Both the position numbers and the translations under genes were made by a program. A stretch of DNA of 64,000 nucleotides from Planctomycetota bacterium (GTDB taxonomy: Bacteria; Planctomycetota; UBA8108; SXIK01): NCBI GenBank assembly GCA_965223265.1, contig OZ244999.1, positions 2,848,001 through 2,912,000 of the forward strand. The letters are read 5' to 3'. The notes under the pieces are model-generated. The model saw only the letters and a program-made list of their open reading frames with translations, made no database searches and was not told where the DNA came from. This document shows, piece after piece, positions 12,546-26,658 of the stretch (positions are counted from its first letter, which is position 1; every line of letters begins with the position of its first letter).

Positions 12546-13337
12546 ATGCTCGCGCTTCTACTCGGCAACACCACACTGCGTTTCGCGTGTCTCCGCGACG
12601 AGTTACTTCGTGGCGACGTTCTTTCCCAGAACTCGCCGCCGATGCGGATCGAATCGCGCCGCATCGCGTGGGAGGACTTGCGGGCGCAGCGCGAAGTGGT
12701 GCGCCGCGAGTGGCGTGCGGCGGCGGGGCAGGGAGTCATCGCCGCGTCCGTGCGCGACGATCGAGTCGAGCTCGTCGAGGCACTCTTGCCGCCCGGGACA
12801 GGTCTCGTCCTGGCCGGGCGAGATTTTGAGGTGCCTGTTCGGAACCGCACCGACGCGCCGCAGCAAGTGGGTGTTGATCGGCTGCTCAATGTCCTTGCGG
12901 CGCGGCGCCGAGCCGGTGGGCGTGCCGCCATCGTCGTTGACTTTGGCACGACGGTGTCGATTTCCGCGATGTCTGCCGAAGGCGACTTTATTGGCGGTGC
13001 GATCGCGCTCGGCGTTCCAGCCGCGCGGCATGGCCTCAGCGCGGGCACACCACGCCTTCCGCGTCTCGAGCTCGCGGCAGAGTCGAGTCATGTGGGCAGA
13101 ACGACGGAGACGGCACTGAGCCGAGGCGTTTATTGGCAGCTGGCTGGCGGGACGCAGGAACTGCTGCGCGGCCTTTCCCGCGAACTGATGTTGAGTGATC
13201 CGCTCGTACTCGCGACGGGAGGTGATGCGGAGCTGTTCGCGGCCGCCGTCGACTCCATCGACGAGGTTGTGCCCGAGCTGACCTTCGAAGGCTTGGTTTT
13301 AGCGCATAGGACCCGTCCAGACGTGGCGTCGCGGTGA
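12546..13337 (+). CDS. coaX: Type III pantothenate kinase
   Basis: 'GNT', 'ASV', 'VGVDR', 'VVDFGTT', 'GGAI', 'ATGGDA', 'LTFEGL'. Confidence 0.88.
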   Translation: MLALLLGNTTLRFACLRDELLRGDVLSQNSPPMRIESRRIAWEDLRAQREVVRREWRAAAGQGVIAASVRDDRVELVEALLPPGTGLVLAGRDFEVPVRNRTDAPQQVGVDRLLNVLAARRRAGGRAAIVVDFGTTVSISAMSAEGDFIGGAIALGVPAARHGLSAGTPRLPRLELAAESSHVGRTTETALSRGVYWQLAGGTQELLRGLSRELMLSDPLVLATGGDAELFAAAVDSIDEVVPELTFEGLVLAHRTRPDVASR

Positions 13338-14545
13338 ACGCGGCAGCAGATTTCACGTTTCATCTCGCAAGTCCCGCCGGCGAAGGCGCGATCGCACTCA
13401 TTGAGATTTACGGCGCGGGGGGCGAGTCGGCGGTGAGGGCGTGTTTCAAGTCACCTAAGGGGGCACTGCCGCGCGTCGGGCGGGCGCGCTACGGCGACTT
13501 TGTGCAGCCGCACGGCGACGTGATCGACGACGTCGTCGTCCAGCGCATTCCCGCGGCGGCGATGTGGAGCGGCCGCGAAGCATGGGTCGTCGAACTACAC
13601 GGCGGTCAGTGGCAGCAGGCGCAAGTGCGAGCGACGCTCCGGCGCGTCGGAGGCGTCGAGCAGTCGCTTCGCGAGGTGTTGGTTTCGTCGGTTCGAGAGC
13701 AGACGCTGGACGCGATCCAAGCCGCAGCGTATGAGTGTTTGGTCGAGGCCCGATCTGAAAAGGCGGCAAGGTTTTTTCTTCGGCAACACAGAGGGGAGCT
13801 GTCGCGCCTTGTCCGCACAGAGCTTGACCAGCTCACAGCGGAGACGCTCGAACGACTTGCATCGCGCGCGGCGCCGTGGCTCGAGCGTTCGCGTGCGGCA
13901 CGGCATCTCGCAGCGCCGCTCCGTGTCCTGATCGCTGGACGTCCGAATGCCGGCAAATCAACGCTATTCAACCGTCTGGTCGAAGAGGAGCGTGCTGTGG
14001 TCTCGGACGTCGCCGGCACGACGCGCGATGTGCTTGTAGCGCAGATCGATCTGTTTGGCTATCCCGTCGTTCTACACGATGGCGCAGGGTTGCGGCCCGA
14101 GGGGGAAGGCGATCTTGTCGAAGAACTCGGGATCCGAAAGGTCATCGCAGGCGAGTGGGATGCGGTCATTCACCTCGTCCGCTACCCTTGGAGGCTCGAC
14201 AGCGCAGAGATCGAACTACTCCAGCGCGTGCCAGCCGGACGTCGTCTGATGGTTGCCTCCGGAGCCGATTTGGCCGTCGACAACTCGTCCGATGTTGACG
14301 CCACTTTCGATCTGAAAGTTTCTGCGCACAGTGGTGAAGGTGTTGATGAGCTGCGGCAACTCATAGCCGAGCGTTGGATCTGCTCCGGGCTCGGTGCGGA
14401 CGACGAAGTGCCCTGTGCTCCGTTCAGCGACCGGCAAGTCGCGCTCTTTCAGGCTGCGATCACGGCATCGGCGAGCCGCGAGGATGACGCCCTTGACGCG
14501 ACTCGGGCTGCGTTCTTACAATGCCTGCGTTCCTCCTGGCCGTGA
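13334..14545 (+). CDS. MnmE/TrmE-like GTPase (divergent, C-terminally short)
   Basis: TrmE N-domain 'SPAGEGAIALI...ELHGG', G1 GRPNAGKS, 'VSDVAGTTRD'. G4 reads SGAD and the C-terminal FCxGK is absent. Confidence 0.75.
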   Translation: MNAAADFTFHLASPAGEGAIALIEIYGAGGESAVRACFKSPKGALPRVGRARYGDFVQPHGDVIDDVVVQRIPAAAMWSGREAWVVELHGGQWQQAQVRATLRRVGGVEQSLREVLVSSVREQTLDAIQAAAYECLVEARSEKAARFFLRQHRGELSRLVRTELDQLTAETLERLASRAAPWLERSRAARHLAAPLRVLIAGRPNAGKSTLFNRLVEEERAVVSDVAGTTRDVLVAQIDLFGYPVVLHDGAGLRPEGEGDLVEELGIRKVIAGEWDAVIHLVRYPWRLDSAEIELLQRVPAGRRLMVASGADLAVDNSSDVDATFDLKVSAHSGEGVDELRQLIAERWICSGLGADDEVPCAPFSDRQVALFQAAITASASREDDALDATRAAFLQCLRSSWP

Positions 14546-14980: not shown

Positions 14981-15571
14981 ATGAGTGTACCTCCAGACAC
15001 CTCCGACGCGAGTGAGTCGCTGCCAGACGGGCGACTCTTCGACGCGTCTGTATTTGCGGGTACGTTCGAGTCGTGGCGACTTGCCATACAGGAGGCGATT
15101 GAAGCCGATCGTTCGTCTCCGGCCGAATGCAGCTGGGCGCTGGTGGGGATCAAGCGGCGTGGCGCAGTCCTGGCGCATCGGCTCCGCGATTGGCTCGAGT
15201 CACAGGGAACGCCGGTACGCTACGGTGAAGTCGACATCTCGCTCTACCGCGACGACTACCATTTGCAGGTTGCCAATCCTCGCGTCCTCGGCACAGAGAT
15301 ACCGTTCAACGTCGACGGCGTCAAAATCCTCCTCGTCGACGACGTTCTCTTCACTGGAAGGACGGTTAGGGCAGCTCTTGACCTCCTACTTGATTTCGGG
15401 CGGCCGAAGGTGATCCAACTGGCGGTCTTCATCGACCGCGGTCACCGCGAGTTGCCCATCGCAGCCGATCTCGTCGGCAAAGTGATTCCGACGCGCGCGG
15501 GGGATCGGGTGCGTGTACGGCTGAAAGAGATCGACGGCGAGGATTGTGTATTCTTGGAGGGGCGAGCCTAA
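14981..15571 (+). CDS. pyrR: Bifunctional pyr operon regulator / uracil phosphoribosyltransferase PyrR
   Basis: 'VGIKRRG', 'DISLYRDD', 'LVDDVLFTGRTVRAALD', 'DRGHRELPI'. Confidence 0.95.
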   Translation: MSVPPDTSDASESLPDGRLFDASVFAGTFESWRLAIQEAIEADRSSPAECSWALVGIKRRGAVLAHRLRDWLESQGTPVRYGEVDISLYRDDYHLQVANPRVLGTEIPFNVDGVKILLVDDVLFTGRTVRAALDLLLDFGRPKVIQLAVFIDRGHRELPIAADLVGKVIPTRAGDRVRVRLKEIDGEDCVFLEGRA

Positions 15572-15586
15572 TCGTCGTCGGCAACC

Positions 15587-16552
15587 ATGCAGTGGACTCG
15601 AAAAGACTTGATCGGGCTTGACGAGCTGAGCGCAGAGGAGATCGAGTTCATCCTCGATACGGCGACCGGCTTCACCGAGGTTTCTACACGCAGCGTGAAG
15701 AAGGTGCCGGCGCTCCGCGGTAAGGTCATCGTCAACCTCTTCTTCGAAGTGTCCACGCGCACGCGGATCTCGTTTGAGCTTGCTGGTGCGCGCCTCTCGG
15801 CCGACGTGATCAACTTCACGGGGTCGATCAGTTCGACGCTCAAAGGTGAAACACTCAACGACACGGCTCGAAACATTGAGGCGATGGGGGTCGACATCGT
15901 CGTGCTACGCCATCCCTGCTCCGGTGCCGCTTATCAGCTGTCACGGGTTTTGAAGGCGAGCGTCGTGAATGCCGGCGACGGTTCGCACGAGCACCCCACA
16001 CAGGCGCTACTCGATATCTTCACGATTCGTAAGGCGCTCGGGCGCATCGCGGGATTGAAGGTCGCCATCGTTGGAGACATCGGGCATAGCCGCGTCGCGC
16101 GGTCGAACATTTGGGGCCTGCAAAAACTGGGGGCCGACGTCTACGTTGTCGGGCCGCCAACTTTGGCCTCGCGCGGTCTCTCGAAGCTGGGGGTGAAAGT
16201 TTGTCACCATTTCGACGAGATTTTGCCCGAGATGGACGTATTCAACATGCTGCGAATTCAGCGTGAGCGTCAGGATCCGGGACTGTTTCCGACGCTGCGG
16301 GAGTACTCGCGTCTTTTCGGCCTCACAAAACAGAGAATGCGCCACGTCAGACCGGATGCGCTCATCTTGCACCCAGGGCCCATCAACCGAGGCGTGGAGA
16401 TCGCGCCTGAAGTCGCGGACGGCCCGCAGTCAGTCATTTTGGATCAGGTGGCGAACGGCCTGGCTGTGCGCATGGCTGTGCTCTACCTGGTCGGGGCGAC
16501 ACGTTCCGAGCAGCCCTCCGACGCACCGCTTAGCGCGGGAGGTGGCGTATGA
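15587..16552 (+). CDS. pyrB: Aspartate carbamoyltransferase catalytic subunit
   Basis: 'FFEVSTRTR', '[10 protein letters not shown]', 'RIQRER', '[11 protein letters not shown]'. Confidence 0.97.
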
Positions 16553-17865
16553 CCCGTCGTCTCTTGATCCGCGGCGGCCGTGTCGTCGACCCTGCGACGG
16601 GGCGGGACGAGATCGCGGACGTCTTTGTCGAAGGCGCGAGAATCGTCTCGATCGGTCACGCCAGTGCACCGACTGACGACACCGTTGACGTCTTCGACGC
16701 GTGCGGTCTCGTGGTGACGCCCGGGCTCATCGATATGCACACGCATTTGCGGGAGCCAGGTAACGAAGAGGTTGAAACCATCCTCAGCGGCGCACGCGCC
16801 GCTATCGCTGGCGGCGTCACGAGCGTCGCGTGCTTTCCGAATACCGACCCCGCGATCGACAACGAGGCGGCCGCCGAATTCGTCATCATTCAAGGTAAGC
16901 GGGCTGGCTATGCCAATGTCCTGCCGGTCGGCGCCGTGACCCTCGGCCTCGAAGGGACGCAGCTTGCTGAAATGGCCGGACTGGCTCGCGCCGGCGCGGT
17001 GGCGTTCACGGACGCGGATCGCACGCTACGCTCGGCGGAGATGATGCGCCGCGGTCTGCTCTACGCCAAGATGTTCGACCTGCCTCTCATCGCGCACTGC
17101 GAGGACGAGGATTTACGGCGCGGCGGTGTCATGAACTATGGACGCGTCGCGCTGCGCCTCGGGCTTGCCGGAATTCCGGAGGTTGCAGAAGACATCGTTG
17201 TCGCGCGCGACATTCGTCTCGCCGCCATCACGCAAGCACAGTTGCATCTCGGCCACATGAGTACGGAAGACGCGGTCGCACAGCTGCGGGCGGCGAAGGC
17301 GAGTGGCGTCGCGGTCACCGGCGAAGTGACCCCACCGCACTTCACTCTGACAGAGGACGAGCTCACCACCTACGACCCGAACTTTAAGATGCTGCCGCCG
17401 CTGCGAACTCGTCAGGACGCAGATGCGCTGATCCAAGGATTGGCCGATGGTGTGATCGACGTGATCGCTTCCGGCCACGCGCCTCATGCGCCTGAGGATA
17501 AGGACGTCGAATTTGTCTACGCACCTCCGGGGGTCGTCGGGCTGGAGACTCTCTTCTCGGTGGCTTACACGGTACTCGTTCTCAAGCACGGATTTTCGCT
17601 GCCATCGGTGCTCGAAAAGATGACGATCAACCCGGCGCGGATTCTCCGGCAAGATCAGGAGCGCGGTAGCCTCGCGCCCGGTAAACTCGCGGATATCGCC
17701 GTGTTCGACCTGTCCACGGAATACACGGTCGACGCCTCGAAGTTTCAATCGAAGAGCCGCAACACGTGTTTTGGTGGCATGCCGGTCTTTGGGCGGGCCG
17801 TGTTCGTCGTCGTTGGTGGCCGTCAGGTTCTGCGCGACGACCAGTTGGTACCTGTGCTGCAGTAG
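16549..17865 (+). CDS. pyrC: Dihydroorotase (type I), possibly inactive PyrC'
   Basis: '[10 protein letters not shown]', 'PNT', 'HCED', 'KMLPPLR', 'SKSRNT'; overlaps the pyrB stop. The usual 'TDHAPH' reads 'SGHAPH'. Confidence 0.88.
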
Positions 17866-17974
17866 TGCTCCGTTTGCATTCGCCCCCGCTGGTACATGGG
17901 GAGTTCCCATAAACTGTTGCGGAGAGGGAGAACCTTGGGAAAGGTAGTGTTCCGGCGAAATCTGTCTTGGTAAC

Positions 17975-19159
17975 ATGCTACCCGGCCCAGAGGAGACCGC
18001 GCGTATGGGAGGAATGACCCCACCGAGGGGCTACACCAAGGAACATACCGAAAAGCGTATTCGGTGGTTGGCAGAAAAGACCGGGTTTCACGTCAGGAAT
18101 GGTGAACCCGATGATCCGGCGAAGCTCAAGGGCATCATTGAGAATCACCTTGGCTTTGTCCCCATACCTCTCGCTGTCGCGGGTCCCCTGCTGATTCATG
18201 GCGACTATGCGGAGGGGCAGTTCTACGTGCCGCTCTGTACGCTCGAGGGAACGCTGACGATCTCGATGACACGCGGGCTCTACTTGACCCAGCTCGCTGG
18301 AGGCATCAAGACCCGGCACATCAAGCAGGAGTTGTCGAGGAGTCCCCTCTTCGTCTTCAACGACATCGATGAAGTGGAGCCGTTTCAGGAGTGGGTGGAC
18401 GCTTCGTTCGAGTCGATCAAGGCTGCAGCGGAATCAACGACACGCTATGGGCGCCTACTACGGATTGATCAATACACCGTACGTAACAGCGTCATACTGG
18501 ATTTCATCTACAATACTGGCGAGGCGGCCGGTCAAAACATGGTGACTCTCGCGACGTACGAGGCGTGCGCGTACATTCGCCAGAACTACACCTCGGGACG
18601 ACCGCGAAACTACTACATCGAGTGCAACTTCAACTGCGACAAGAATCCAGCGTACAAGTCCGTGCTTCATGGCCGAAGCCATCAAGTCATCGCCAGTGCG
18701 CTCATCCCCGGCCGTTTCTTGAGGCGCGTGCTTCGTACCACCGCGCAGGAATACTGCGAAGCATGGTCTCACTGCACCCGCAGCGGGCAGATCGCGGGCG
18801 TCGTTGGCAACAACCTTCATGTCGCCAACGCGTTGGCCGCCATCTATCTTGCCACCGGGCAGGACGTGGCCTGCGTCGCCGAGAATGCGGTCGGCAACGT
18901 TGAGTTTGAGGTGCGAGACCAGGAGAATCTGTTCGTCACGTTGACGATGCCGTCGATCAGCGTCGGCACCGTAGGTGGTGGAACGACCTTGTCACATCAG
19001 AAATCGAATCTTGAAATGCTCGGCTGTAGCGGTAAGAACTCCTCTAAGAAACTTGCCGAGATCGTTTGTGCGTCTGCTTTGGCGCTGGAGCTCTCTTTGG
19101 GAGGCGCCATCGTCAGTGATGAGTTTGCCCAGGCTCACGCGATGTTCGGTCGGCGCTAG
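17975..19159 (+). CDS. Class I HMG-CoA reductase-like protein (NAD(P)H-dependent CoA-thioester reductase)
   Basis: 'IENHLG', 'PLCTLEGTL', 'TGEAAGQNM', 'NFNCDKNP', 'ATGQDVA', 'VGTVGGGT', C-terminal catalytic His in 'AHAMFG'. Confidence 0.85.
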   Translation: MLPGPEETARMGGMTPPRGYTKEHTEKRIRWLAEKTGFHVRNGEPDDPAKLKGIIENHLGFVPIPLAVAGPLLIHGDYAEGQFYVPLCTLEGTLTISMTRGLYLTQLAGGIKTRHIKQELSRSPLFVFNDIDEVEPFQEWVDASFESIKAAAESTTRYGRLLRIDQYTVRNSVILDFIYNTGEAAGQNMVTLATYEACAYIRQNYTSGRPRNYYIECNFNCDKNPAYKSVLHGRSHQVIASALIPGRFLRRVLRTTAQEYCEAWSHCTRSGQIAGVVGNNLHVANALAAIYLATGQDVACVAENAVGNVEFEVRDQENLFVTLTMPSISVGTVGGGTTLSHQKSNLEMLGCSGKNSSKKLAEIVCASALALELSLGGAIVSDEFAQAHAMFGRR

Positions 19160-19335
19160 CGCCAGTAGCCATGCGTCGAACACCGCGCGAGCGTGCCGCG
19201 GCAAACAGTTCGAAAAGCCGTTTCGAAAAGCAGTTCTGAAAAGACACGTGAAGTAGGACCGATCCAGATTGACGACGCTGCCGACTGACCATCTCCAGTT
19301 GAGTGGCGCACTGAACTACGAACGGAGCGAGAGTC

Positions 19336-20094
19336 ATGGTGAAAAGTCTTCAGTATGAGCTGGAGCATGCGACAACCGAGCCCCAGGTGACGTCGCCGCA
19401 TCACGATTCACCGCTCTTCGTGCGCTGCACGCAGCGTTTGTTTCAGTCCTTCAGTCAGTTCGTGCTGAAGTTCTACTGCCCCATGCAGGTCGACGGCCGT
19501 GAGTACTTGCCCACGTCGCCGTTTCTGCTTTGCAGCAATCATAACAGTCACATGGACAGCCCCGTCCTCATGACTGCGTCTCGATTGCCGTTTTCGAGCT
19601 TTGGGATGCTGGCAGCGCGAGACTACTTCTTCGAGAATCGCACTCGCCGCGTCGGCTCGCAGATGATCATGAACCTCATTCCGATCGAACGCAACGCCAA
19701 CCGCAAGAGTATTCTGCAGTCCGTTGCTTCGTGTCAAAGTTTCATTCGCGCTGGCGGCCGCGGCTTGATCATTTACCCGGAAGGGACGCGGTCGACGACT
19801 GGCGTGCTGCGTGGCAAATTCAAGAAGGGGCCGGCGATTATCGCAGTCGAGCTCGGCCTGCCGATCGTGCCGGTCTATGTCTCGGGCACGAGCGCGGCGT
19901 GGGGTAAGGGCAAGCGATTCATGCGACCGCGACCCATTCGGGTGACCTTCGGCGCGCCCATCATGCCTGACGAGTTCGCAAGCGATGGGTTCGGGCAAGA
20001 CGGCGGCGGTGACGTGTCGCGCTTCGAAGCCTACCGAGCCATGACGGAGGAGCTCGAGAAGCGTGTGCGGGCCCTCAAACCCTCGGGCGATTGA
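19336..20094 (+). CDS. PlsC-like glycerolipid acyltransferase
   Basis: NHxxxxD (NHNSHMD), 'AARDYFF', 'YPEGTRS', 'FKKG', 'PIVPV'. Confidence 0.9.
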   Translation: MVKSLQYELEHATTEPQVTSPHHDSPLFVRCTQRLFQSFSQFVLKFYCPMQVDGREYLPTSPFLLCSNHNSHMDSPVLMTASRLPFSSFGMLAARDYFFENRTRRVGSQMIMNLIPIERNANRKSILQSVASCQSFIRAGGRGLIIYPEGTRSTTGVLRGKFKKGPAIIAVELGLPIVPVYVSGTSAAWGKGKRFMRPRPIRVTFGAPIMPDEFASDGFGQDGGGDVSRFEAYRAMTEELEKRVRALKPSGD

Positions 20095-21834
20095 GTGTCC
20101 GCGCCGACGCAGATGAAGTGGTGGGGTTGGGGCGACCCGGAGAAGGCGTTCGATCCGGCTGATAAGCCCTACCTGTGGCCGTTCATCGAGACGACACTCG
20201 GGATTTCTTCGCGGGCTCAGACGCCTCCGGTTCGCCTCGACGACATCGACATTCCCCCAAGCCGGTTGCACGAGACGGCGTTCAAGCACCTTCGCTCGGA
20301 GCTCGGCGACGAGCGAGTTTCGTCAGATGACTTCGATCGACTCCTGCACGCCTACGGTAAGAGTTTTCGAGATGTCTGGCGACTGCGCCATGGCATCGTC
20401 GACGTGGCTCCTGACTGCGTTGTCTATCCTGAAACGGAGCGCGACGTCGTCGCGGTTGTGACCGCGTCGCTCGAACACGAGTTCGTTGTGATCCCGTTCG
20501 GTGGCGGCTCGAACATTGCCGGCTGCGTTGAAGCGCGCGACACAGAGCGACCGATTGTCTCCGTCGACATGAAACGGCTGAAGCGGCTCCTGCAGGTTGA
20601 TGAAGAGTCGATGATCGCGCGGGTCGAGACAGGAGTGATGGGGCCTGATCTTGAGGCACAGCTCGCACCGCATCGTGTCACGCTGGGACACTTTCCCGAC
20701 TCGTTCGAGTACTCGACTCTCGGCGGCTGGATCGCAACGCGCTCTGCCGGCATGCAGAGCGATAAGTACGGTAAGATCGAAGACATGGTCATCGCCCTGC
20801 GAATGGTGACGCCGCAGGGGACGATCGCGACGCGGGAGGTGCCGAAATGCTCGAACGGCATCGACGTGAACCACCTTTGCATCGGCAGCGAGGGAATCCT
20901 CGGAATATTGTCCGAAGCGACCATGCAAGTTCATCGTCTGCCCGAGCGGCGGGAGGCGTACGGCTACCTCTTTCCCGACTTCGAGAGCGGTGTGCGGGCG
21001 ATTCGTCGCTGTGTCGAGGACGACTGCATGCCGGTTGTGACCCGATTGAACGACATCGGCAAGACGGCGCTTTCGTTCGCATTCAAGTCACCGTCGACTG
21101 GCTTCAAGACGGTGGCGAGCAAGGCCGTGAAGTCCTACTTGAGCAAGGTTCGTGGTTTTGACTTGCAGGCTTGCTGCCTCATGGTGACGATCCTCGAGGG
21201 CAGCGAACGCGATTTTCGTCGGCAGCGCCGCCGTGTCGAGCGCATCTACCGTGCGAGCGGTGGTGTGTGTCTGGGCACGGAGCCCGGCCGCTCTTTCGAA
21301 CGTGCGAAATACGACTTTCCGTATTTGCGCGATCACGTCATGGACCACAACATCATCGCCGACGTGAGCGAAACCTGCACCGTGTGGTCGAATCTCTTGC
21401 CCCTTTATGAGGGTGTTCGCAAGGCGATCGACAGCGCCATTCGTGACACCGGCCGGCAACCGTTTCTCGGTTGTCACGTCAGCCACACGTATCACACGGG
21501 CGCTAGCCTCTACTTCACGTTCGCCTGCGAAGGCGTGCCGGAGCGAGAGCTCGAGCAGTATCTCTACATCAAGAAAGCAGCGCAGGATGCATTCATCGCC
21601 GCCGGGGGCACGCTCTCGCACCACCACGCTGTCGGTTACGAGCACATGCCTTGGATCGAAGAGGATATTTCGCCCGCAGGCGTCGCCGCTGTGCGCGCTC
21701 TGAAGCGCGGCCTCGATCCCCGCGGCCTGATGAACCCGGGTAAGATCCTTCCCGGCGATGCGGCGCGGCGATTCGACGATTGGGGGTTCGGTGCGCAAAG
21801 TCAAGCTCGGTTCGACGAGCAGCGTGAGGCCTGA
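20095..21834 (+). CDS. Alkyl-dihydroxyacetonephosphate synthase (AGPS/ADPS)-like FAD oxidoreductase
   Basis: 'KWWGWG', 'PFGGGS', 'GHFPDSFEYSTLGGWIATRSAG...YGKIEDMV', 'GSEGILG', 'HVSHTYHTGASLYF', 'SHHHAVG', all matching eukaryotic AGPS motifs. Confidence 0.88.
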   Translation: MSAPTQMKWWGWGDPEKAFDPADKPYLWPFIETTLGISSRAQTPPVRLDDIDIPPSRLHETAFKHLRSELGDERVSSDDFDRLLHAYGKSFRDVWRLRHGIVDVAPDCVVYPETERDVVAVVTASLEHEFVVIPFGGGSNIAGCVEARDTERPIVSVDMKRLKRLLQVDEESMIARVETGVMGPDLEAQLAPHRVTLGHFPDSFEYSTLGGWIATRSAGMQSDKYGKIEDMVIALRMVTPQGTIATREVPKCSNGIDVNHLCIGSEGILGILSEATMQVHRLPERREAYGYLFPDFESGVRAIRRCVEDDCMPVVTRLNDIGKTALSFAFKSPSTGFKTVASKAVKSYLSKVRGFDLQACCLMVTILEGSERDFRRQRRRVERIYRASGGVCLGTEPGRSFERAKYDFPYLRDHVMDHNIIADVSETCTVWSNLLPLYEGVRKAIDSAIRDTGRQPFLGCHVSHTYHTGASLYFTFACEGVPERELEQYLYIKKAAQDAFIAAGGTLSHHHAVGYEHMPWIEEDISPAGVAAVRALKRGLDPRGLMNPGKILPGDAARRFDDWGFGAQSQARFDEQREA

Positions 21835-22695
21835 GTGAGCGAAAGCGCTGTGCCCAGCCGTGGTGGACCGTGCGGCGGCCAGGCCGTGGCCATCACCGGC
21901 GCTTCGTCCGGCCTCGGAGCGGCGCTCGCCGAAGAGTTCGCCCGGGCCGGCGCTGACGTAGCGCTCTTCGCACGCCGGCGGCCTGAGCTCGAGGCGGTTG
22001 CCGAGCGATGCCGCCGGCACGGAGCGCGTGCGGTCGTTGTCGCCGGCGACGTGACGCGTTACGAGGATTGCGAGCGACTGATCGAAGACGCCGCGGAGCA
22101 GCTTGGCGGCGTCGACTGCGTCGTCGCCAATTCAGGTATCAGCATGTGGGCGCGCTTCGATGAGGTGGAAGACATTTCCCTCTTCAAGCAGCTGATGGAC
22201 GTGAACTACCTTGGCGTTGTGCATACGGTGCACGCCGCGCTTCAGGCGCTCCTCAAAAGTCGTGGCATGATCGTCGTGGTTTCGTCCGTGCAGGGATGCG
22301 TCGGCGTGCCGTTTCACACGGGCTATGCTGCGAGTAAGTTCGCACTGCACGGATTCGTCGAGTCGCTGCGCCTTGAACTCGAGGGCACGGGTGTCGACAC
22401 CCTCATCGCCATGCCATATTGGATGCGCGGCACGGAACTCAGGGGAAGCGCCCTGTCGGCAAGCGGCGGCGAGGTAGGGACGGCGCGGCGCCAACACTCG
22501 CGCGGCGCCGTCGACGTCCAGGAGTGCGCGCGGCGCATTGTCGCGGCGACCGCGCGGCGTGAACGCCAGCTGACGATTCCCGGCAAGCTACGGTTTCTCC
22601 CGCTCCTCAAGGCGTTGGCGCCGCGGCTGACCGAGTCGATTGTGCGGCGCAAGATGCGGCGCGAGGATGCGCGAGGGCCGGCAGGAAGCGAGTGA
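21835..22695 (+). CDS. Short-chain dehydrogenase/reductase (DHRS7/7B-like)
   Basis: TGASSGLG, ANSG, catalytic S and YAASK; 'ARR' after beta2 suggests NADP(H). Starts at the base after the AGPS stop. Confidence 0.88.
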   Translation: MSESAVPSRGGPCGGQAVAITGASSGLGAALAEEFARAGADVALFARRRPELEAVAERCRRHGARAVVVAGDVTRYEDCERLIEDAAEQLGGVDCVVANSGISMWARFDEVEDISLFKQLMDVNYLGVVHTVHAALQALLKSRGMIVVVSSVQGCVGVPFHTGYAASKFALHGFVESLRLELEGTGVDTLIAMPYWMRGTELRGSALSASGGEVGTARRQHSRGAVDVQECARRIVAATARRERQLTIPGKLRFLPLLKALAPRLTESIVRRKMRREDARGPAGSE

Positions 22696-22855
22696 GGCTG
22701 GCACGTTCTCGGCGGAGCTGAAGAACGTCGGCTTCGACGCCCGGCGCGCGGCGCGGCGGGTGTGGCGATCGCATGATGCGCGCTAGCGCGAACACCAAGA
22801 GCGACGACGTCGACCGATCGCATCGGTGTCGATTCTGCCAGTTTTGGTCGCGCTC

Positions 22856-24034
22856 TCAGTCGTCGGCGTCGCCCGAGTCGCCTAAGACGTCCCCGGTTTC
22901 CGGCGGAGCAAGCTCATCGACGACAAAGTCAACCCGCTGACTGACGAGGACTCCGGGCTTGCTCGGGAGATAAAGCTCGACATCGGCGTACGAGACAAGA
23001 CGAGTTACAGGGTTCGAGGTGTAGAGTAGCTGTAGGCTGATGGTTTCGGGGCCTGAGACACCGAGGGCGGCCCGGTCTATGGCGACGCGTAGTCGCAGCT
23101 GTTGCGCTTGTTGAGGCTTAAACCCAAGGCCGTGGTTGGCGAGAACGGCCGCCTCCGGCGACGGATAGTACGGAATACCGTTGATCCACCAGCGAGCGAG
23201 AATGCGCCTGGCGGCGGCTGAGACTTCGACTCGCGAGGACGACGTGAGCAAAAGGTCTGGACCGTCGACCTTCAACTCGAGACCACTTGCGGGGACGTCG
23301 GCTCCGCTGAGGTTCCGAAGCTGGGGCAAGTGGGTCCGAGAGGCCTGAAGCGCCGCCTGCGTGGCTGAACGCGGGAAGGGTATGGTGCCGTTGCCCCAAC
23401 CGGGAAGGGCGATGCTTGAAGTGGGTCCCGAGACCTGGGCGGCCACAACTCCAGGTTGGGTTCCCTGGGTGATTCGGGTCTCGGCCGGTTCGAATGCTAT
23501 CCACGGATGTGACGGGTGCTCCTCAGCGTGGAGAACGAACTTGAGGATTTCTCGCTGCTCGGAGCTGATTCTGATGGTCTGCTCGCGCGCCTCTGTGACT
23601 GGCACGACGCGGAGAAACAGAAATGGTGGTGCGAGAGTTGAGGAATGCTGATGTATGCCACGGACGAACTGGTTCGAATCGTCGCTACCTGCGACTTCAA
23701 CGGTGAGGGGGCCGAACGGTTGTCCGCGGTTGTGGCGAAATTCATACGACCGAGGACCCTCAAACAGGCAGTAGAGGAGCACGCCAGAGTGAACGCGCGC
23801 ACTCGATGCCTCGACTCCGACGCGCACGCTGTGGCTGTCGCCGACTCGGATTGCCGGCTGGCGTAGAAGGTCGCCCCATGTCCGCACGACGGGGACGCCA
23901 TTCCACCAGTCGCGTAGCTCCACCCGCCGCACGTACGCCAGAGCTGCCGCCAGCAGCGCCGTCACGGTGAGCAGCATTGCCAGCAGCCGCTTCGGTCGGC
24001 GGCGTCCTGAGGGCTCCGATGCGCGCTCGGCCAA
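22856..24034 (-). CDS. Hypothetical membrane-anchored protein
   Basis: 392-aa ORF; basic N-terminus plus one TM (LLAMLLTVTALLAAALAYV), beta-rich remainder; no family recognised. Confidence 0.6.
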   Translation of the reverse strand: MAERASEPSGRRRPKRLLAMLLTVTALLAAALAYVRRVELRDWWNGVPVVRTWGDLLRQPAIRVGDSHSVRVGVEASSARVHSGVLLYCLFEGPRSYEFRHNRGQPFGPLTVEVAGSDDSNQFVRGIHQHSSTLAPPFLFLRVVPVTEAREQTIRISSEQREILKFVLHAEEHPSHPWIAFEPAETRITQGTQPGVVAAQVSGPTSSIALPGWGNGTIPFPRSATQAALQASRTHLPQLRNLSGADVPASGLELKVDGPDLLLTSSSRVEVSAAARRILARWWINGIPYYPSPEAAVLANHGLGFKPQQAQQLRLRVAIDRAALGVSGPETISLQLLYTSNPVTRLVSYADVELYLPSKPGVLVSQRVDFVVDELAPPETGDVLGDSGDADD

Positions 24035-24267: not shown

Positions 24268-26658
24268 ATGACGGGAATTCAAGTTCGATCGCATCGCGGC
24301 GCGTTCTATTTCGCGGTTTTCGCCGCGGCGCTGTTTCTGGCGAGTTTTGTGAGCGCGCCGGTCGAGGCGCAGCGCGCGCGATCGGGCGGTCGTTCTTCCG
24401 GCCGCAGCATGAGCCGGGGCTCGAGTTCCTCGAGCCGTAGCAGTGTGGGTCGCTCCCGCTCGTCCGGTCGCAGCGTCAGCCGTGGTTCTTCCGGCCGTAG
24501 CCGCAGCGTGAGCCGTGGTTCTTCCGGCCGCAGCCGTAGCGTCAGCCGCGGCTCCGCCGGCCGTTCGCGCGCCAGCACGGCGCGGGGCTCTTCGGGCTCG
24601 CGCTCCCGGAGTGCGGTTCGCTCCGGCGGACGGTCCTCCAGTCGATCGCGCCCGTCGGCCAGTGGGACGCGTTCACGCGGCTCGTCTGCAGCTGCGAGCC
24701 GCGGTACGCGTTCGCGGTCGTTTTCGAATCCTCGTGGCCGCGGTGGGGCAACACGATCCCGATCGTTTTCGCCGTCGGCGTCGCGTTCCCGTGGTTTGCC
24801 GTCGCGCTCTCGCTCTCTCGGTCGTTCGCGCCCGGCGAATCGCGGCTTACGTTCCTCACGTGGTGTGACGACGCGTTCGGGCGCGCGGGGAGTGTCACGT
24901 TCCGCCACCTCATCGCGCGCTCTGGGTCGCTCGAGCATTGGACGTAGCAGGATAGGTCGCAGCAGCAACCTCGGCCGTAGTCGCATCGGACGAAGCGTCC
25001 AGCGCGGCACCGGCGGCGCAGTGACGTCGAGATCGCGTGCAGTGGGGCAGCTAGCCCCCTGGAAGGTCGGTGCAACAAGGTCGACGTCAGGTCGCTCTCA
25101 GGTTGCCTCGCGCACGGACGTTTCGCGGCGCGGGATTTCGAGCCGCGCCAGCCAAGCACCATGGCGCGCAGGCACCTCCGTTGCCGCGCGGCAACAGGGG
25201 GCGCTTCGCAATCGCCTCGGTGCGCGCTCGTCAGGCGAGGCCGTGTCACGGACACGGGTTAGTTCAGGTACTGGCGGTGTTGCCTCGGTTGCGACGGGTA
25301 GCCGCAGCGGTACACGTCACCGCTTGCGCTCTGGTGTTCCGTATCTGAGCGAGTCTGCGACGCGTAGCGGTTCCGTACGATCGTTGACGGGCGGCCGTGG
25401 CGGCAACGTGCTGTCAAGTAGCGGTGCGATTTCGTCGCGAAGGGCAATTTCGTCCCGCTCCGCGGTGTCGAGCGCTTCGCTTGGGACGGCCGGGGCGAGC
25501 ACCGCGCTGCGTAGTTCCGCAGGCGTGACTTCGGGTGGCGTTCATTCAGCTGTCGTGCCCAGTCTCGATGCAGCGTCGACGTCAGCGCGCCATTTTTACC
25601 ACGGCCACCGTCGACATCATGGTGATCATCACGATTCCTATCATCACGCCTTCCATCATGGTTTCCACCATGGCCACCACCACCATTTTGGTCACTTCTA
25701 TGGCCACTATGGCTTCGCGCATCACTACCGTCACTATCACCACTTCGGCTATCCGTACTTCTCGTTCGGTATTTCTTTCGGATCACCGTACTACTACGCG
25801 GACGCCTTCTATCACGCCTACCACCACTATCCGTCACACTATTACCGCTACCATTACTGGCGCCCGGACGTCTACTACTACGCGTATCCTTACTACGCGC
25901 CCGTCTACGTCGCTTATCCTCACAACTACGCGTCCGACACGGTGGACTATGAGGTCGCCGAAGTCTCCTACGAGCCGCGGCGCGAAGTCGTACGGCCGCA
26001 GGAGTATGTCGAACCGAGCGACACGGGCGTCGTACCTGTGTCAGCGCCTTCAGACGCGAGCGCGGTAGCGAGTAGCGTCGGCCAAGGTGGCGAGGTCGTG
26101 ACCGACGCGCAGCGGAGTTTCGGACTCGGACTGCTGCACCTGCAGCGAGGCGACTTCAGCGCCGCCTCGGAGTCGTTCTATCTTGCCACGCTGGACGCTC
26201 CCGGAAGCGATCTGGCGAAGGTCGCCCTGGCGGTGAACCTGTTCGCGATCGCTGAGTATGAGCACGCCGCGGAATACTTAAGGGGCGCTCTTGCGGGGTG
26301 GGATGGTTTTCCGAATGCGGGCTTGGATTTGCGTAAATTCTATGGCGACACCGCAGCTTTGGCGCTGCACACACAGCGCTTGAGCGCGGCGCTTGAGCTG
26401 AATCCGTCCGACCGCGACGTGCGCCTCGTTTACGCCTTCGTACTTTTCCACAGCGGCGAGCGGGATGCTGCGGCTGCCCACTGGGACGCTCTCGACGACC
26501 TCCCCTCGAAGGATCCGGCGGAGGCGGCCGTGGTGGCGCGTTACCTAAGAACGTACGATGCCGCGGCGGCCTCGGAGGCCTCGTCTGTCAGTCCCGAGAT
26601 TCGGGCGTTTCTCGACGATCCTGACTTCGCCAAGGTGAGCGCACTGCCACTTGAGTAA
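24268..26658 (+). CDS. Secreted low-complexity protein: Arg/Ser/Gly tract, His/Tyr/Gly tract, C-terminal TPR domain
   Basis: Sec signal peptide ending VEA; ~400 aa R/S/G-rich; His/Tyr-rich segment ~25590-25930; TPR-like helices from ~26110. Confidence 0.75.
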   Translation: MTGIQVRSHRGAFYFAVFAAALFLASFVSAPVEAQRARSGGRSSGRSMSRGSSSSSRSSVGRSRSSGRSVSRGSSGRSRSVSRGSSGRSRSVSRGSAGRSRASTARGSSGSRSRSAVRSGGRSSSRSRPSASGTRSRGSSAAASRGTRSRSFSNPRGRGGATRSRSFSPSASRSRGLPSRSRSLGRSRPANRGLRSSRGVTTRSGARGVSRSATSSRALGRSSIGRSRIGRSSNLGRSRIGRSVQRGTGGAVTSRSRAVGQLAPWKVGATRSTSGRSQVASRTDVSRRGISSRASQAPWRAGTSVAARQQGALRNRLGARSSGEAVSRTRVSSGTGGVASVATGSRSGTRHRLRSGVPYLSESATRSGSVRSLTGGRGGNVLSSSGAISSRRAISSRSAVSSASLGTAGASTALRSSAGVTSGGVHSAVVPSLDAASTSARHFYHGHRRHHGDHHDSYHHAFHHGFHHGHHHHFGHFYGHYGFAHHYRHYHHFGYPYFSFGISFGSPYYYADAFYHAYHHYPSHYYRYHYWRPDVYYYAYPYYAPVYVAYPHNYASDTVDYEVAEVSYEPRREVVRPQEYVEPSDTGVVPVSAPSDASAVASSVGQGGEVVTDAQRSFGLGLLHLQRGDFSAASESFYLATLDAPGSDLAKVALAVNLFAIAEYEHAAEYLRGALAGWDGFPNAGLDLRKFYGDTAALALHTQRLSAALELNPSDRDVRLVYAFVLFHSGERDAAAAHWDALDDLPSKDPAEAAVVARYLRTYDAAAASEASSVSPEIRAFLDDPDFAKVSALPLE
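24469..24567 (+). repeat. In-frame 33-bp tandem repeat x3 encoding RSVSRGSSGRS-like units
   Basis: CGCAGCGTCAGCCGTGGTTCTTCCGGCCGTAGC and two degenerate copies. Confidence 0.75.

Follow-up and report, generated by a model that had tools for sequence, protein, structure and literature searches.

Four adjacent genes at positions 17975-22695 of the window (the whole 64,000-nucleotide stretch of DNA that was analysed), all on the + strand in the ORF list, are likely to form an operon that makes 1-O-alkyl-glycerol-3-phosphate, from which alkyl ether phospholipids are built, by the aerobic, AGPS-type route, and in which an enzyme with the HMG-CoA reductase (HMGR) fold would supply the fatty alcohol. 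This function of the cassette is a computational prediction, and it is largely supported. If it is true, ether-linked membrane lipids here owe their fatty alcohol to a repurposed relative of HMG-CoA reductase, an enzyme of the cholesterol pathway. The locus comprises the following features.

17975-19159, + strand: FcrA-like reductase, longest ORF, 394 aa; PF00368.
19160-19335, no strand: intergenic gap between reductase and acyltransferase, 176 bp.
19336-20094, + strand: PlsC-type acyltransferase, 252 aa, putatively a DHAP (glycerone-phosphate) O-acyltransferase; PF01553.
20095-21834, + strand: alkyl-DHAP synthase (AGPS), 579 aa, a predicted FAD enzyme that would replace the acyl group on acyl-DHAP by a fatty alcohol; PF01565 and PF02913.
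21835-22695, + strand: classical SDR, 286 aa, putatively an NADPH-dependent acyl/alkyl-DHAP reductase yielding 1-O-alkyl-glycerol-3-phosphate; PF00106.

The ORFs and these family matches confirm the four co-oriented genes that an earlier note on this DNA had described. The same note held that the last three genes abut exactly. A TGA is indeed followed directly by a GTG at 20094/20095 (acyltransferase/AGPS) and at 21834/21835 (AGPS/SDR), but these abutments are a property of the longest ORFs; homologue alignments begin only at residue 5-6 in AGPS and at residue 15 in the SDR, so that translation may in fact begin a few codons further downstream. For the reductase the probable start is the ATG at 18005, giving 384 aa, and its database copy (P0005) has 384 aa. 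Inside the 176-bp gap there was no Rfam match and no promoter or terminator match on the + strand. Reductase and acyltransferase are -6 to 110 bp apart in related loci, with a median of 31, and with 176 bp separating the reductase from the other three genes here, a single transcript for all four is a prediction.

The four-gene arrangement is far beyond chance, since the same order returns in every related locus examined. The earlier note had proposed to look in other genomes for a linkage of an HMGR-like gene, an acyltransferase, AGPS and an SDR. As far as the contigs extend, all 10 genome loci and all 80 metagenome loci keep this gene order. All 10 of the genome loci have the acyltransferase, 9 have AGPS and 7 have the SDR, each miss coinciding with a contig end. 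In the metagenome loci with room downstream, the corresponding counts were 72/72, 57/57 and 45/45, order and strand never varied, and no further gene appeared in over 10 of these 80 neighbourhoods. The 71 linked reductases, together with 6 representatives of unknown context, fall into a single clade with a support of 1.0, in a tree of 219 sequences that includes only one canonical-signature leaf and no characterised FcrA and whose rooting is uninformative. The four-gene set thus recurs in many environmental bacteria, and we propose that it is a self-contained module with a patchy distribution across several bacterial phyla.

The reductase matched the HMG-CoA_red family (PF00368) with 338 bits in the profile search. 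Against TIGR00533, the class-I NADPH model, it reached 280 bits, which is under the model's cut-off of 441.8; the class-II model gave 21 bits. Alignment to 1dq8 (residue numbers being chain numbering plus 421) and 6hr7 showed that the catalytic residues are retained, with E91, K223, D297 and H388 corresponding to human E559, K691, D767 and H866. The pocket contains E216, N224, C267 and F384 at the positions of human S684, K692, K735 and L862. In canonical HMGR, S684, K692 and K735 contact the HMG carboxylate, while R590 and D690 form polar contacts with the HMG moiety (PMC9500038). The three carboxylate contacts have become E, N and C in the cassette reductase, which thus lacks the residue set of a canonical class-I HMGR. 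Among 121 close homologues, the S684 column holds Glu and the L862 column Phe in every case (121/121), Asn replaces K692 in 120, and the K735 column is mixed (Cys in 55, Lys in 30, other residues in 36).

In 2025 a fatty acyl-CoA reductase derived from HMGR was characterised under the name FcrA, with Pb-FcrA of 'Ca. Promineifilum breve' assayed and the N. pharaonis enzyme modelled (Grossi et al. 2025, ISME J, PMC11948995). As reported there, FcrA turns acyl-CoA into alcohol and does not reduce HMG-CoA; its distinguishing features are the change of Ser684 to Glu, a bulky residue in place of Leu862 and replacement of the Lys that salt-bridges the HMG carboxylate (human K735, printed there as 'Lys795'). 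The cassette reductase has a class-I HMGR catalytic domain with all four catalytic residues and Glu, Cys and Phe at these three positions. What is more, the spacings along E216-K223-C267-D297-F384-H388 (7, 44, 30, 87 and 4) are the same as those of E360, K367, G411, D441, W528 and H532 in N. pharaonis FcrA (PMC11948995, section 19). By these signature residues the enzyme is a probable member of the FcrA family. With a Lad-type homologue from Chloroflexi it shares only 37% identity. HMGR-like domains were also found fused behind AMP-binding and PP-binding domains, in the position of a thioester reductase, and these fusions, like the cassette, point toward acyl reduction.

Every source that names the reductase annotates it as hydroxymethylglutaryl-CoA reductase, and with its catalytic residues intact it could be thought a true HMG-CoA reductase making mevalonate, the AGPS neighbourhood being fortuitous or serving isoprenoid ethers. 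We consider this extremely improbable. In the organism's own genome, a single contig of 9.18 Mb, the cassette reductase is the only PF00368 match; no HMG-CoA synthase (PF01154), no mevalonate kinase above cut-off (best 23.5 bits) and no mevalonate diphosphate decarboxylase (TIGR01240) were found there, while Dxr was found with 457 bits and the DXP pathway is present. PF01154 was not found above cut-off in any of the genomes searched that carry a non-canonical HMGR-like gene (0/1 for the own genome, then 0/4, 0/5, 0/5 and 0/6), a set that includes 10 other cassette-bearing genomes. As a control within the phylum, both planctomycete genomes with a canonical S684/K735/L862 HMGR hold HMG-CoA synthase (2/2; 51 and 42 bits). 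The score below the TIGR00533 cut-off, the changes of S684 to Glu, K735 to Cys and L862 to Phe, and a linkage to AGPS that is invariant over 90 loci also argue against mevalonate production. That the cassette reductase does not serve mevalonate synthesis is supported by these results.

The suggestion in the earlier note that mevalonate-derived alcohols might be used is not supported. The search for FAR homologues, proposed there alongside that for mevalonate genes, found no canonical FAR in this genome: the best PF07993 match reached 46 bits, and the ORFs concerned are 340-425 aa long. Of three sister-genus genomes examined, two hold a PF07993 FAR-domain protein elsewhere, at about 180 bits, so FcrA is not always the sole possible source of the alcohol.

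The change of K692 to Asn does not figure in the description of FcrA in the accessible sections of PMC11948995. Its occurrence in 120 of 121 homologues, together with the Lys at the K735 column in 30 of them, suggests that the substrate preference may differ from that of the characterised FcrA. A different acyl-CoA (e.g. 3-hydroxyacyl, branched or short) would lead the cassette to an unusual ether-linked product. We think this quite unlikely, even though the Asn is specific to the clade, R590 and D690, the polar contacts to HMG (PMC9500038), are retained, and 12 of the 59 FcrA enzymes modelled may accommodate only smaller molecules (PMC11948995, section 19). The AGPS closely resembles enzymes that use long-chain alcohols, Glu at 684 with a bulky residue at 862 is the signature of the long-chain enzyme (PMC11948995), and the cassette has no conserved neighbours that could serve as accessory genes for making an unusual acyl-CoA.

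With a long-chain acyl-CoA as the substrate, the proposed route to 1-O-alkyl-glycerol-3-phosphate would have four steps. The HMGR-fold, FcrA-family reductase would convert long-chain acyl-CoA and 2 NADPH to a fatty alcohol, as we infer from its signature residues and the published enzymology of FcrA. The PlsC-type acyltransferase would form 1-acyl-DHAP, AGPS would put the fatty alcohol in place of this acyl group to give 1-O-alkyl-DHAP, and the SDR would presumably reduce the keto group to yield 1-O-alkyl-sn-glycerol-3-phosphate. Housekeeping enzymes would afterwards acylate sn-2 and attach head groups. A search for PEDS1/CarF, in which the control was silent too, found no evidence of it, and on that basis the expected products are alkyl ethers and not vinyl ethers.

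The AGPS ORF at 20095-21834, to which the third step is assigned, carries FAD_binding_4 (PF01565) and FAD-oxidase_C (PF02913), and its translation contains the eukaryote-like AGPS motifs noted earlier: MKWWGWG, GHFPDSFEYSTLGGW and SHHHAVG. Its best solved matches are Dictyostelium ADPS (2uuu, 437 bits) and guinea-pig AGPS (4bby, 319 bits), and the next family, D-LDH, reached 101 bits. We take Arg419, Tyr578 and the His615-617 loop to be catalytic in the guinea-pig enzyme (positions counted on chain 4bby); in the alignment to 4bby their equivalents are retained within VTRLND, ASLYF and SHHHAVG. These residues are conserved in 45 of 47 cassette rows, the remaining 2 being wrong-strand ORF picks. 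Strong homology and the catalytic residues thus make a strong case for a predicted alkylglycerone-phosphate synthase.

The two enzymes flanking AGPS could be assigned differently. The acyltransferase matched PF01553 only, with 73 bits, and has the HX4D block NHNSHMD and the EGTR block YPEGTRS. Its longer nearest relatives are ElbD-like multidomain proteins (AMP-binding/ACP/FAR/acyltransferase), to whose acyltransferase domain it is 31-38% identical, and one acyltransferase-AGPS fusion (P0278). The SDR matched adh_short (PF00106) with 167 bits and NF004825 with 282 bits (cut-off 215), and contains TGASSGLG (TGxxxGxG) and YAASK (YxxxK); its nearest solved relatives are clavaldehyde dehydrogenase and 11-beta-HSD1. 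The same ether lipid could be made if the acyltransferase were AGPAT-like, acting on sn-2 of 1-alkyl-G3P with acyl-DHAP coming from another enzyme, and/or if the SDR, instead of acting on alkyl-DHAP, were a fatty aldehyde reductase assisting the HMGR-fold enzyme. The best NCBIfam domain model for the acyltransferase is AGP_acyltrn, and its sole solved relative is a 1-acyl-G3P acyltransferase, T. maritima PlsC (5kym, 46 bits). The SDR in turn scores 113 bits against the C-terminal portion of NF005539/PRK07201 (positions 365-619 of 657), and PRK07201 is the profile used in PMC11948995 for the AcrB-type acyl-CoA reductase. Such an exchange of roles is nevertheless unlikely in our view. AGPS requires acyl-DHAP, no other candidate DHAP acyltransferase is known here, and the acyltransferase-AGPS fusion exists. 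FcrA alone performs the full four-electron reduction (PMC11948995). The SDR follows AGPS in the cassette without exception (45/45), and an SDR directly precedes AGPS in four further planctomycete loci (L021-L024) that have no reductase. Pathway logic and its relatives suggest that the acyltransferase acts on DHAP, its sequence being compatible with either DHAP or 1-alkyl-G3P; the SDR is likewise a putative acyl/alkyl-DHAP reductase, of a sequence that would suit alkyl-DHAP and fatty aldehyde equally.

In the eukaryotic peroxisomal pathway, ether lipids are made by FAR1, GNPAT, AGPS and DHRS7B/PexRAP (Ayr1 in yeast). This pathway runs through the same chemical steps as proposed for the cassette, and its AGPS is clearly homologous, sharing the catalytic Arg, Tyr and HHH loop, whereas the FAR step would be carried out in the cassette by a non-homologous fold. 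The ElbD pathway (elbA-E) of myxobacteria makes alkyl ether lipids and, to our knowledge, does not use AGPS. It shares with the cassette a related acyltransferase domain and the (predicted) product, but the cassette has no AMP-binding, ACP or FAR domain.

The Myxococcus xanthus operon MXAN_1676-MXAN_1675-MXAN_1674 encodes AGPS, a FAR-GNPAT fusion and an NAD-dependent epimerase/dehydratase (PMC9131029, PMC13012113). Like the cassette, it brings together AGPS, an acyl-CoA reductase activity, an NAD(P)-dependent reductase and an acyltransferase resembling GNPAT/AGPAT in an aerobic, peroxisome-like route. The two differ in several respects: the reductase has the HMGR fold in the cassette and the FAR/NAD_binding_4 fold in M. 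xanthus, the acyltransferase is a stand-alone protein of 252 aa rather than fused to the reductase (FARAT), the last enzyme is a classical SDR rather than an epimerase-family protein, and the order differs, with the reductase first and AGPS third.

The four-step pathway with alcohol from an HMGR-fold enzyme, as put forward in the earlier note, is largely supported by the absence of mevalonate genes, the FcrA pocket, the linkage, the AGPS residues and the ether-lipid enzymes among the longer relatives of the acyltransferase. The idea of the reductase, on the other hand, is not new: an HMGR-fold acyl-CoA reductase is already known in FcrA, and the same paper already speculated that certain FcrA might supply AGPS-type synthesis of ether lipids (PMC11948995). 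A compact FcrA-acyltransferase-AGPS-SDR cassette was not found in the published literature. The cassette reductase resembles FcrA in its class-I HMGR fold, catalytic E/K/D/H, Glu for S684, non-Lys at K735, bulky aromatic at L862 and equal spacing, as well as in a host genome without the mevalonate pathway. It differs in lacking the N-terminal Lad domain (PF25653, present in P0185 and P0489), in having Phe rather than Trp at position 862 and in its clade-specific change of K692 to Asn. The main context of FcrA is wax esters, and AGPS lies nine genes from Pb-fcrA (PMC11948995), whereas the cassette reductase sits tightly in a four-gene set with AGPS.

The analysis confirmed, from the ORF list and the family matches, the four co-oriented genes at 17975-22695 that the earlier note had proposed as an ether-lipid cassette. 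The genes and their surroundings are listed below, with AGPS standing for alkyl-DHAP synthase and SDR for short-chain dehydrogenase.

Genes of the cassette and its surroundings
13334-14545, MnmE/TrmE-like GTPase ORF, 403 aa (163 bits against an equivalog cut-off of 380)
14981-17865, pyrR-pyrB-pyrC operon, directly upstream of the cassette
17975-19159, + strand, HMG-CoA-reductase-like gene (PF00368, 338 bits; class-I model TIGR00533, 280 bits against a cut-off of 441.8; class-II model, 21 bits)
19336-20094, + strand, acyltransferase gene (PF01553)
20095-21834, + strand, AGPS gene (FAD_binding_4 and FAD-oxidase_C)
21835-22695, + strand, classical SDR gene
22856-24034, - strand, 392-aa ORF downstream of the cassette (no Pfam or NCBIfam match)
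24268-26658, + strand, 796-aa ORF downstream of the cassette (TPR match below threshold, nothing else)

The two TGA/GTG junctions were found as claimed, and the AGPS motifs quoted in the same note are present in the translation. A gap of 176 bp separates the reductase gene from the other three. The start codons may lie a few codons away from those given, since the alignments with homologues begin at residue 10-11 in the reductase, 5-6 in the AGPS and 15 in the SDR. In GC3 the four genes (0.71-0.77) are like the pyr genes beside them (0.69-0.74), and composition therefore gives no sign of recent transfer. The scan for promoter-like sites (three, all on the - strand) and terminator-like sites (six against 4.6 expected) was uninformative, and an Rfam search of 17700-23100 gave no match. 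Within the upstream operon, the scores are 180 bits for PyrR, 402 for aspartate carbamoyltransferase and 383 for dihydroorotase, the last above the cut-off of TIGR00857; there is a 4-bp overlap between pyrB and pyrC. The 403-aa ORF, whose N-terminal and helical domains match weakly, is possibly a divergent or shortened MnmE. Neither the 392-aa nor the 796-aa downstream ORF is conserved beside the cassette elsewhere.

The assignment of the third gene to AGPS held. Its product scores best against solved AGPS structures, with 437 bits to the Dictyostelium alkyl-DHAP synthase 2uuu over a 510-residue gap-free alignment and 319 bits to guinea-pig AGPS 4bby; the next family, D-lactate dehydrogenase, reaches 101 bits. 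Positions R419, Y578 and H615-617 of the guinea-pig enzyme, which we take to be its catalytic residues, are R, Y and HHH in 4bby and are all matched by the window AGPS. Judged by these alignments, the third gene is a genuine AGPS.

To place the reductase, its residues were read from alignments to the structure chains 1dq8 (offset +421) and 6hr7 and from a profile alignment. The catalytic positions are E91, K223, D297 and H388, and the His equivalent to H866 of human HMGR, the second His counted on chain 1dq8, is conserved. In the pocket, E216 stands at S684, C267 at K735 and F384 at L862 (human HMGR numbering; structure-chain and profile alignments). K735 of HMGR forms a salt bridge with the HMG carboxylate, and S684 and K692 make polar contacts (PMC9500038). 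FcrA, an HMGR-derived fatty acyl-CoA reductase, keeps the catalytic Glu559, Lys691, Asp767 and His866; Glu takes the place of Ser684, a bulky residue that of Leu862 (in N. pharaonis, Trp528), and a small residue, Gly411, that of the Lys in the salt bridge to the HMG carboxylate (PMC11948995). The spacings along E216-K223-C267-D297-F384-H388 of the window reductase (7, 44, 30, 87 and 4) are identical to those along E360, K367, G411, D441, W528 and H532 of N. pharaonis FcrA (PMC11948995); in human HMGR the third and fourth spacings are 32 and 95. The signature supports the assignment of the window reductase to the FcrA type, with clade membership taken from these residues and not from a rooted tree.

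Among 121 close homologues in the profile alignment, Glu at 684 and Phe at 862 are invariant and Asn occupies 692 in 120. The K735 column is variable (Cys in 55, Lys in 30, others in 36), and loss of K735 was dropped as a clade-wide signature because Lys is present in 30 of the 121; it is true of the window's protein only. The change of K692 to Asn (motif DKNP; N224 in the window reductase; 120 of 121, homologues P0005-P0124) is clade-specific and accompanies AGPS linkage; most other FcrA-like representatives retain Lys there. Neither Asn at 692 nor the Lys kept at the K735 column in a quarter of the clade is described for FcrA in the accessible parts of the published account. A search with P0185, a Lad-type homologue used as representative, gave no named characterised FcrA among the matches listed. 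A FastTree phylogeny built from 219 HMGR-domain sequences placed the 71 linked reductases and six representatives of unknown context in one clade with support 1.0, divided into two subclades of 39 and 38 members.

The first gene could instead have served a mevalonate pathway. This reading was rejected because the rest of the pathway is missing from the organism's own genome, Dxr is present, and HMGRs with the canonical signature co-occur with HMG-CoA synthase. The genome (GCA_965223265.1; 9.18 Mb, single contig) contains one PF00368 match and a clear Dxr (457 bits). The search for mvaS, mvk and mvd that the earlier note had proposed found there no HMG-CoA synthase domain (PF01154), no diphosphomevalonate decarboxylase, and no mevalonate kinase over the cut-off (best match 23.5 bits). 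As a control, 13 other planctomycete HMGR homologues were sorted by their pocket residues. The canonical S684/K735/L862 set occurs in two of them (genomes G074 and G098), and PF01154 exceeds the cut-off in both (51 and 42 bits), so the search is sensitive enough within Planctomycetota. No genome with a non-canonical HMGR-like gene gave PF01154 over the cut-off, the counts being 0/4 (sister genus), 0/5, 0/5 and 0/6 (further cassette-bearing). No PF01154 match was found in G242, a member of the genus of G074 with a fragmentary HMGR in a 670-contig assembly. The mevalonate pathway is reported to be absent from bacteria whose sole homologue is FcrA (PMC11948995). A third HMGR type (loci L114-L118; planctomycete genomes G064, G256, G240, G096 and G089), with Q590, H684, E690, R692, Y735 and F862, fits neither the canonical nor the printed FcrA signature, and its genomes are without HMG-CoA synthase.

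A second proposed check, for other alcohol-forming reductases of the FAR family (PF07993), gave no convincing candidate in the own genome, the best match being 46 bits; a 180-bit PF07993 protein lies elsewhere in two of the three sister-genus genomes tested. CarF/PEDS1 (PF10520) and WS/DGAT (PF03007) had no match in the own genome and none in the control genomes either, and are therefore uninformative.

Linkage of the four genes elsewhere, which the earlier note had put forward for a neighbourhood search, proved to be conserved in every genome and metagenome locus as far as the sequence reaches. The reductase query against contigs of one genome per species returned 10 loci (59-69% identity), all with the order reductase-acyltransferase-AGPS-SDR on one strand. 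All 10 have the acyltransferase, nine have AGPS and seven the SDR, each miss coinciding with a contig end. A profile of 26 homologues was then run against metagenome contigs and the best 80 of 446 relatives were kept; wherever the contig extended far enough downstream, each gene was there, in constant order: the acyltransferase in 72 of 72 loci, AGPS in 57 of 57 and the SDR in 45 of 45. Outside the four genes each neighbour occurs in at most 10 of the 80 metagenome loci, so that the conserved unit consists of the four genes. Upstream, an aldo-keto reductase (10 loci) or an MMPL protein (7 loci) is found in some cases, neither being conserved across the set. The 80 metagenome and 10 genome loci are not independent, since many are closely related and at least two of the former duplicate genome loci: the contig of L034 is by length the same as that of L011, and L042 shares its contig name with L015.

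The distribution is patchy. Among 301 sampled Planctomycetota genomes, the adjacent pair is confined to the own genome and one sister genus, where it lies on one contig in three of four genomes and is interrupted by contig ends in the fourth; the remaining two genomes of the own family in this sample gave no such pair. In the phylum of the Caldithrix-labelled MAG, a clade member occurs in 3 of 151 genomes, two of them already known. The sources of close homologues are labelled KSB1, Ignavibacteria, Verrucomicrobiota, Marinimicrobia and Planctomycetota, with one Caldithrix MAG, and the cassette, being present in MAGs so labelled, could thus help to find producers of alkyl glycerol ether biomarkers.

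The AGPS of the second subclade is 26-33% identical to that of the window and retains the motifs GHEPDS..ST.GGW and SHHHGVG together with the Arg and the Tyr (among 47 AGPS rows checked over all cassettes, with L041 and L065 disregarded as wrong-strand ORFs). One example of this second version (L076-L113), the AGPS at 7976-9568 of L092, scores 451 bits against the guinea-pig peroxisomal enzyme and 275 against that of Dictyostelium, the reverse of the preference of the window AGPS (319 and 437, respectively). Phylogenetic signal for AGPS was insufficient in a 2026 PNAS study of plasmalogen origins (PMC13012113). The animal-like and Dictyostelium-like types may bear on the source of eukaryotic AGPS, and on their sequences the two cassette types may be useful for this question; an ESM Atlas search returned generic FAD-binding oxidoreductase clusters only, with nothing on AGPS ancestry.

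Other arrangements of these domains were also seen. Among representatives of the wider HMGR-like family, the HMGR-like domain follows AMP-binding and PP-binding domains in P0132, P0140 and P0178, the place that a terminal thioester reductase takes. It is also fused to an APH/EcKL kinase (P0131, P0143), to PilZ (P0130, P0136), and to DUF3419 and APH together (P0149); the fusions with PilZ suggest that c-di-GMP may control a lipid reductase. The nearest longer relatives of the cassette acyltransferase are ElbD-like AMP-binding/ACP/FAR/acyltransferase enzymes of ether-lipid synthesis (31-38% identity) and a single 753-aa acyltransferase-AGPS fusion. Four other planctomycete loci have an SDR immediately upstream of AGPS, with no adjoining reductase or acyltransferase match. 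An SDR-AGPS fusion in these loci (L021-L024) was rejected: in L021, L023 and L024 the long open frame and the SDR match are in different frames, and L022 consists of two ORFs, so the claim is limited to adjacency. In another planctomycete locus, L032 (G098:C39), a distant AGPS homologue (33% identity) adjoins a 2601-aa ORF with a 236-bit FAR (PF07993) domain, by its domain content a different way to pair AGPS with an alcohol-forming reductase.

In the proposed pathway, the FcrA-like enzyme would reduce acyl-CoA to a fatty alcohol, as suggested by its signature and by the published enzymology of its relatives. The acyltransferase would acylate DHAP, AGPS, given its strong homology, would swap the acyl group for the alcohol, and the SDR would reduce 1-O-alkyl-DHAP to 1-O-alkyl-G3P. 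Comparative genomics supports this four-step ether-lipid pathway with an HMGR-fold reductase, the main interpretation of the earlier note, and we consider it likely that the four genes form an ether-lipid operon. FcrA was discovered in a wax-ester context (PMC11948995), and for most of the bacterial ones a pathway has yet to be assigned; constant association with AGPS in one operon would give one FcrA clade a role in ether-lipid synthesis. If the reading is true, candidates are also named for two bacterial orphan steps, DHAP acylation and alkyl-DHAP reduction, and the four-gene, cofactor-simple module would be an attractive part for ether-lipid engineering in E. coli. Far more speculative, and in our estimate doubtful, is the view of the cassette as a self-sufficient 'peroxisome-like' module for ether lipids, ancient and horizontally mobile, in two deep versions, a major unrecognised bacterial source of monoalkyl glycerol ethers in marine and sediment samples, which itself or through its relatives marks donor lineages of eukaryotic AGPS and possibly of alkyl-DHAP reductase.

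The main interpretation is partly anticipated in print by Grossi et al., who suggest that some FcrA may provide alcohols for ether lipids and report an AGPS gene nine genes after Pb-fcrA of 'Ca. Promineifilum breve' and a PlsC-like gene adjoining fcrA in Coxiella (PMC11948995). A compact invariant four-gene cassette, an FcrA subclade of its own and two AGPS types were not found in the searchable literature, and the supplements of PMC11948995 and PMC13012113 may list such neighbourhoods. The nearest described system is MXAN_1676-1675-1674 of M. xanthus, whose products are an AGPS, a protein that fuses FAR to GNPAT, and a member of the epimerase family (PMC9131029, PMC13012113). The cassette is proposed to have the same four activities with different parts: an HMGR-fold reductase instead of a FAR, a stand-alone acyltransferase, a classical SDR and another gene order.
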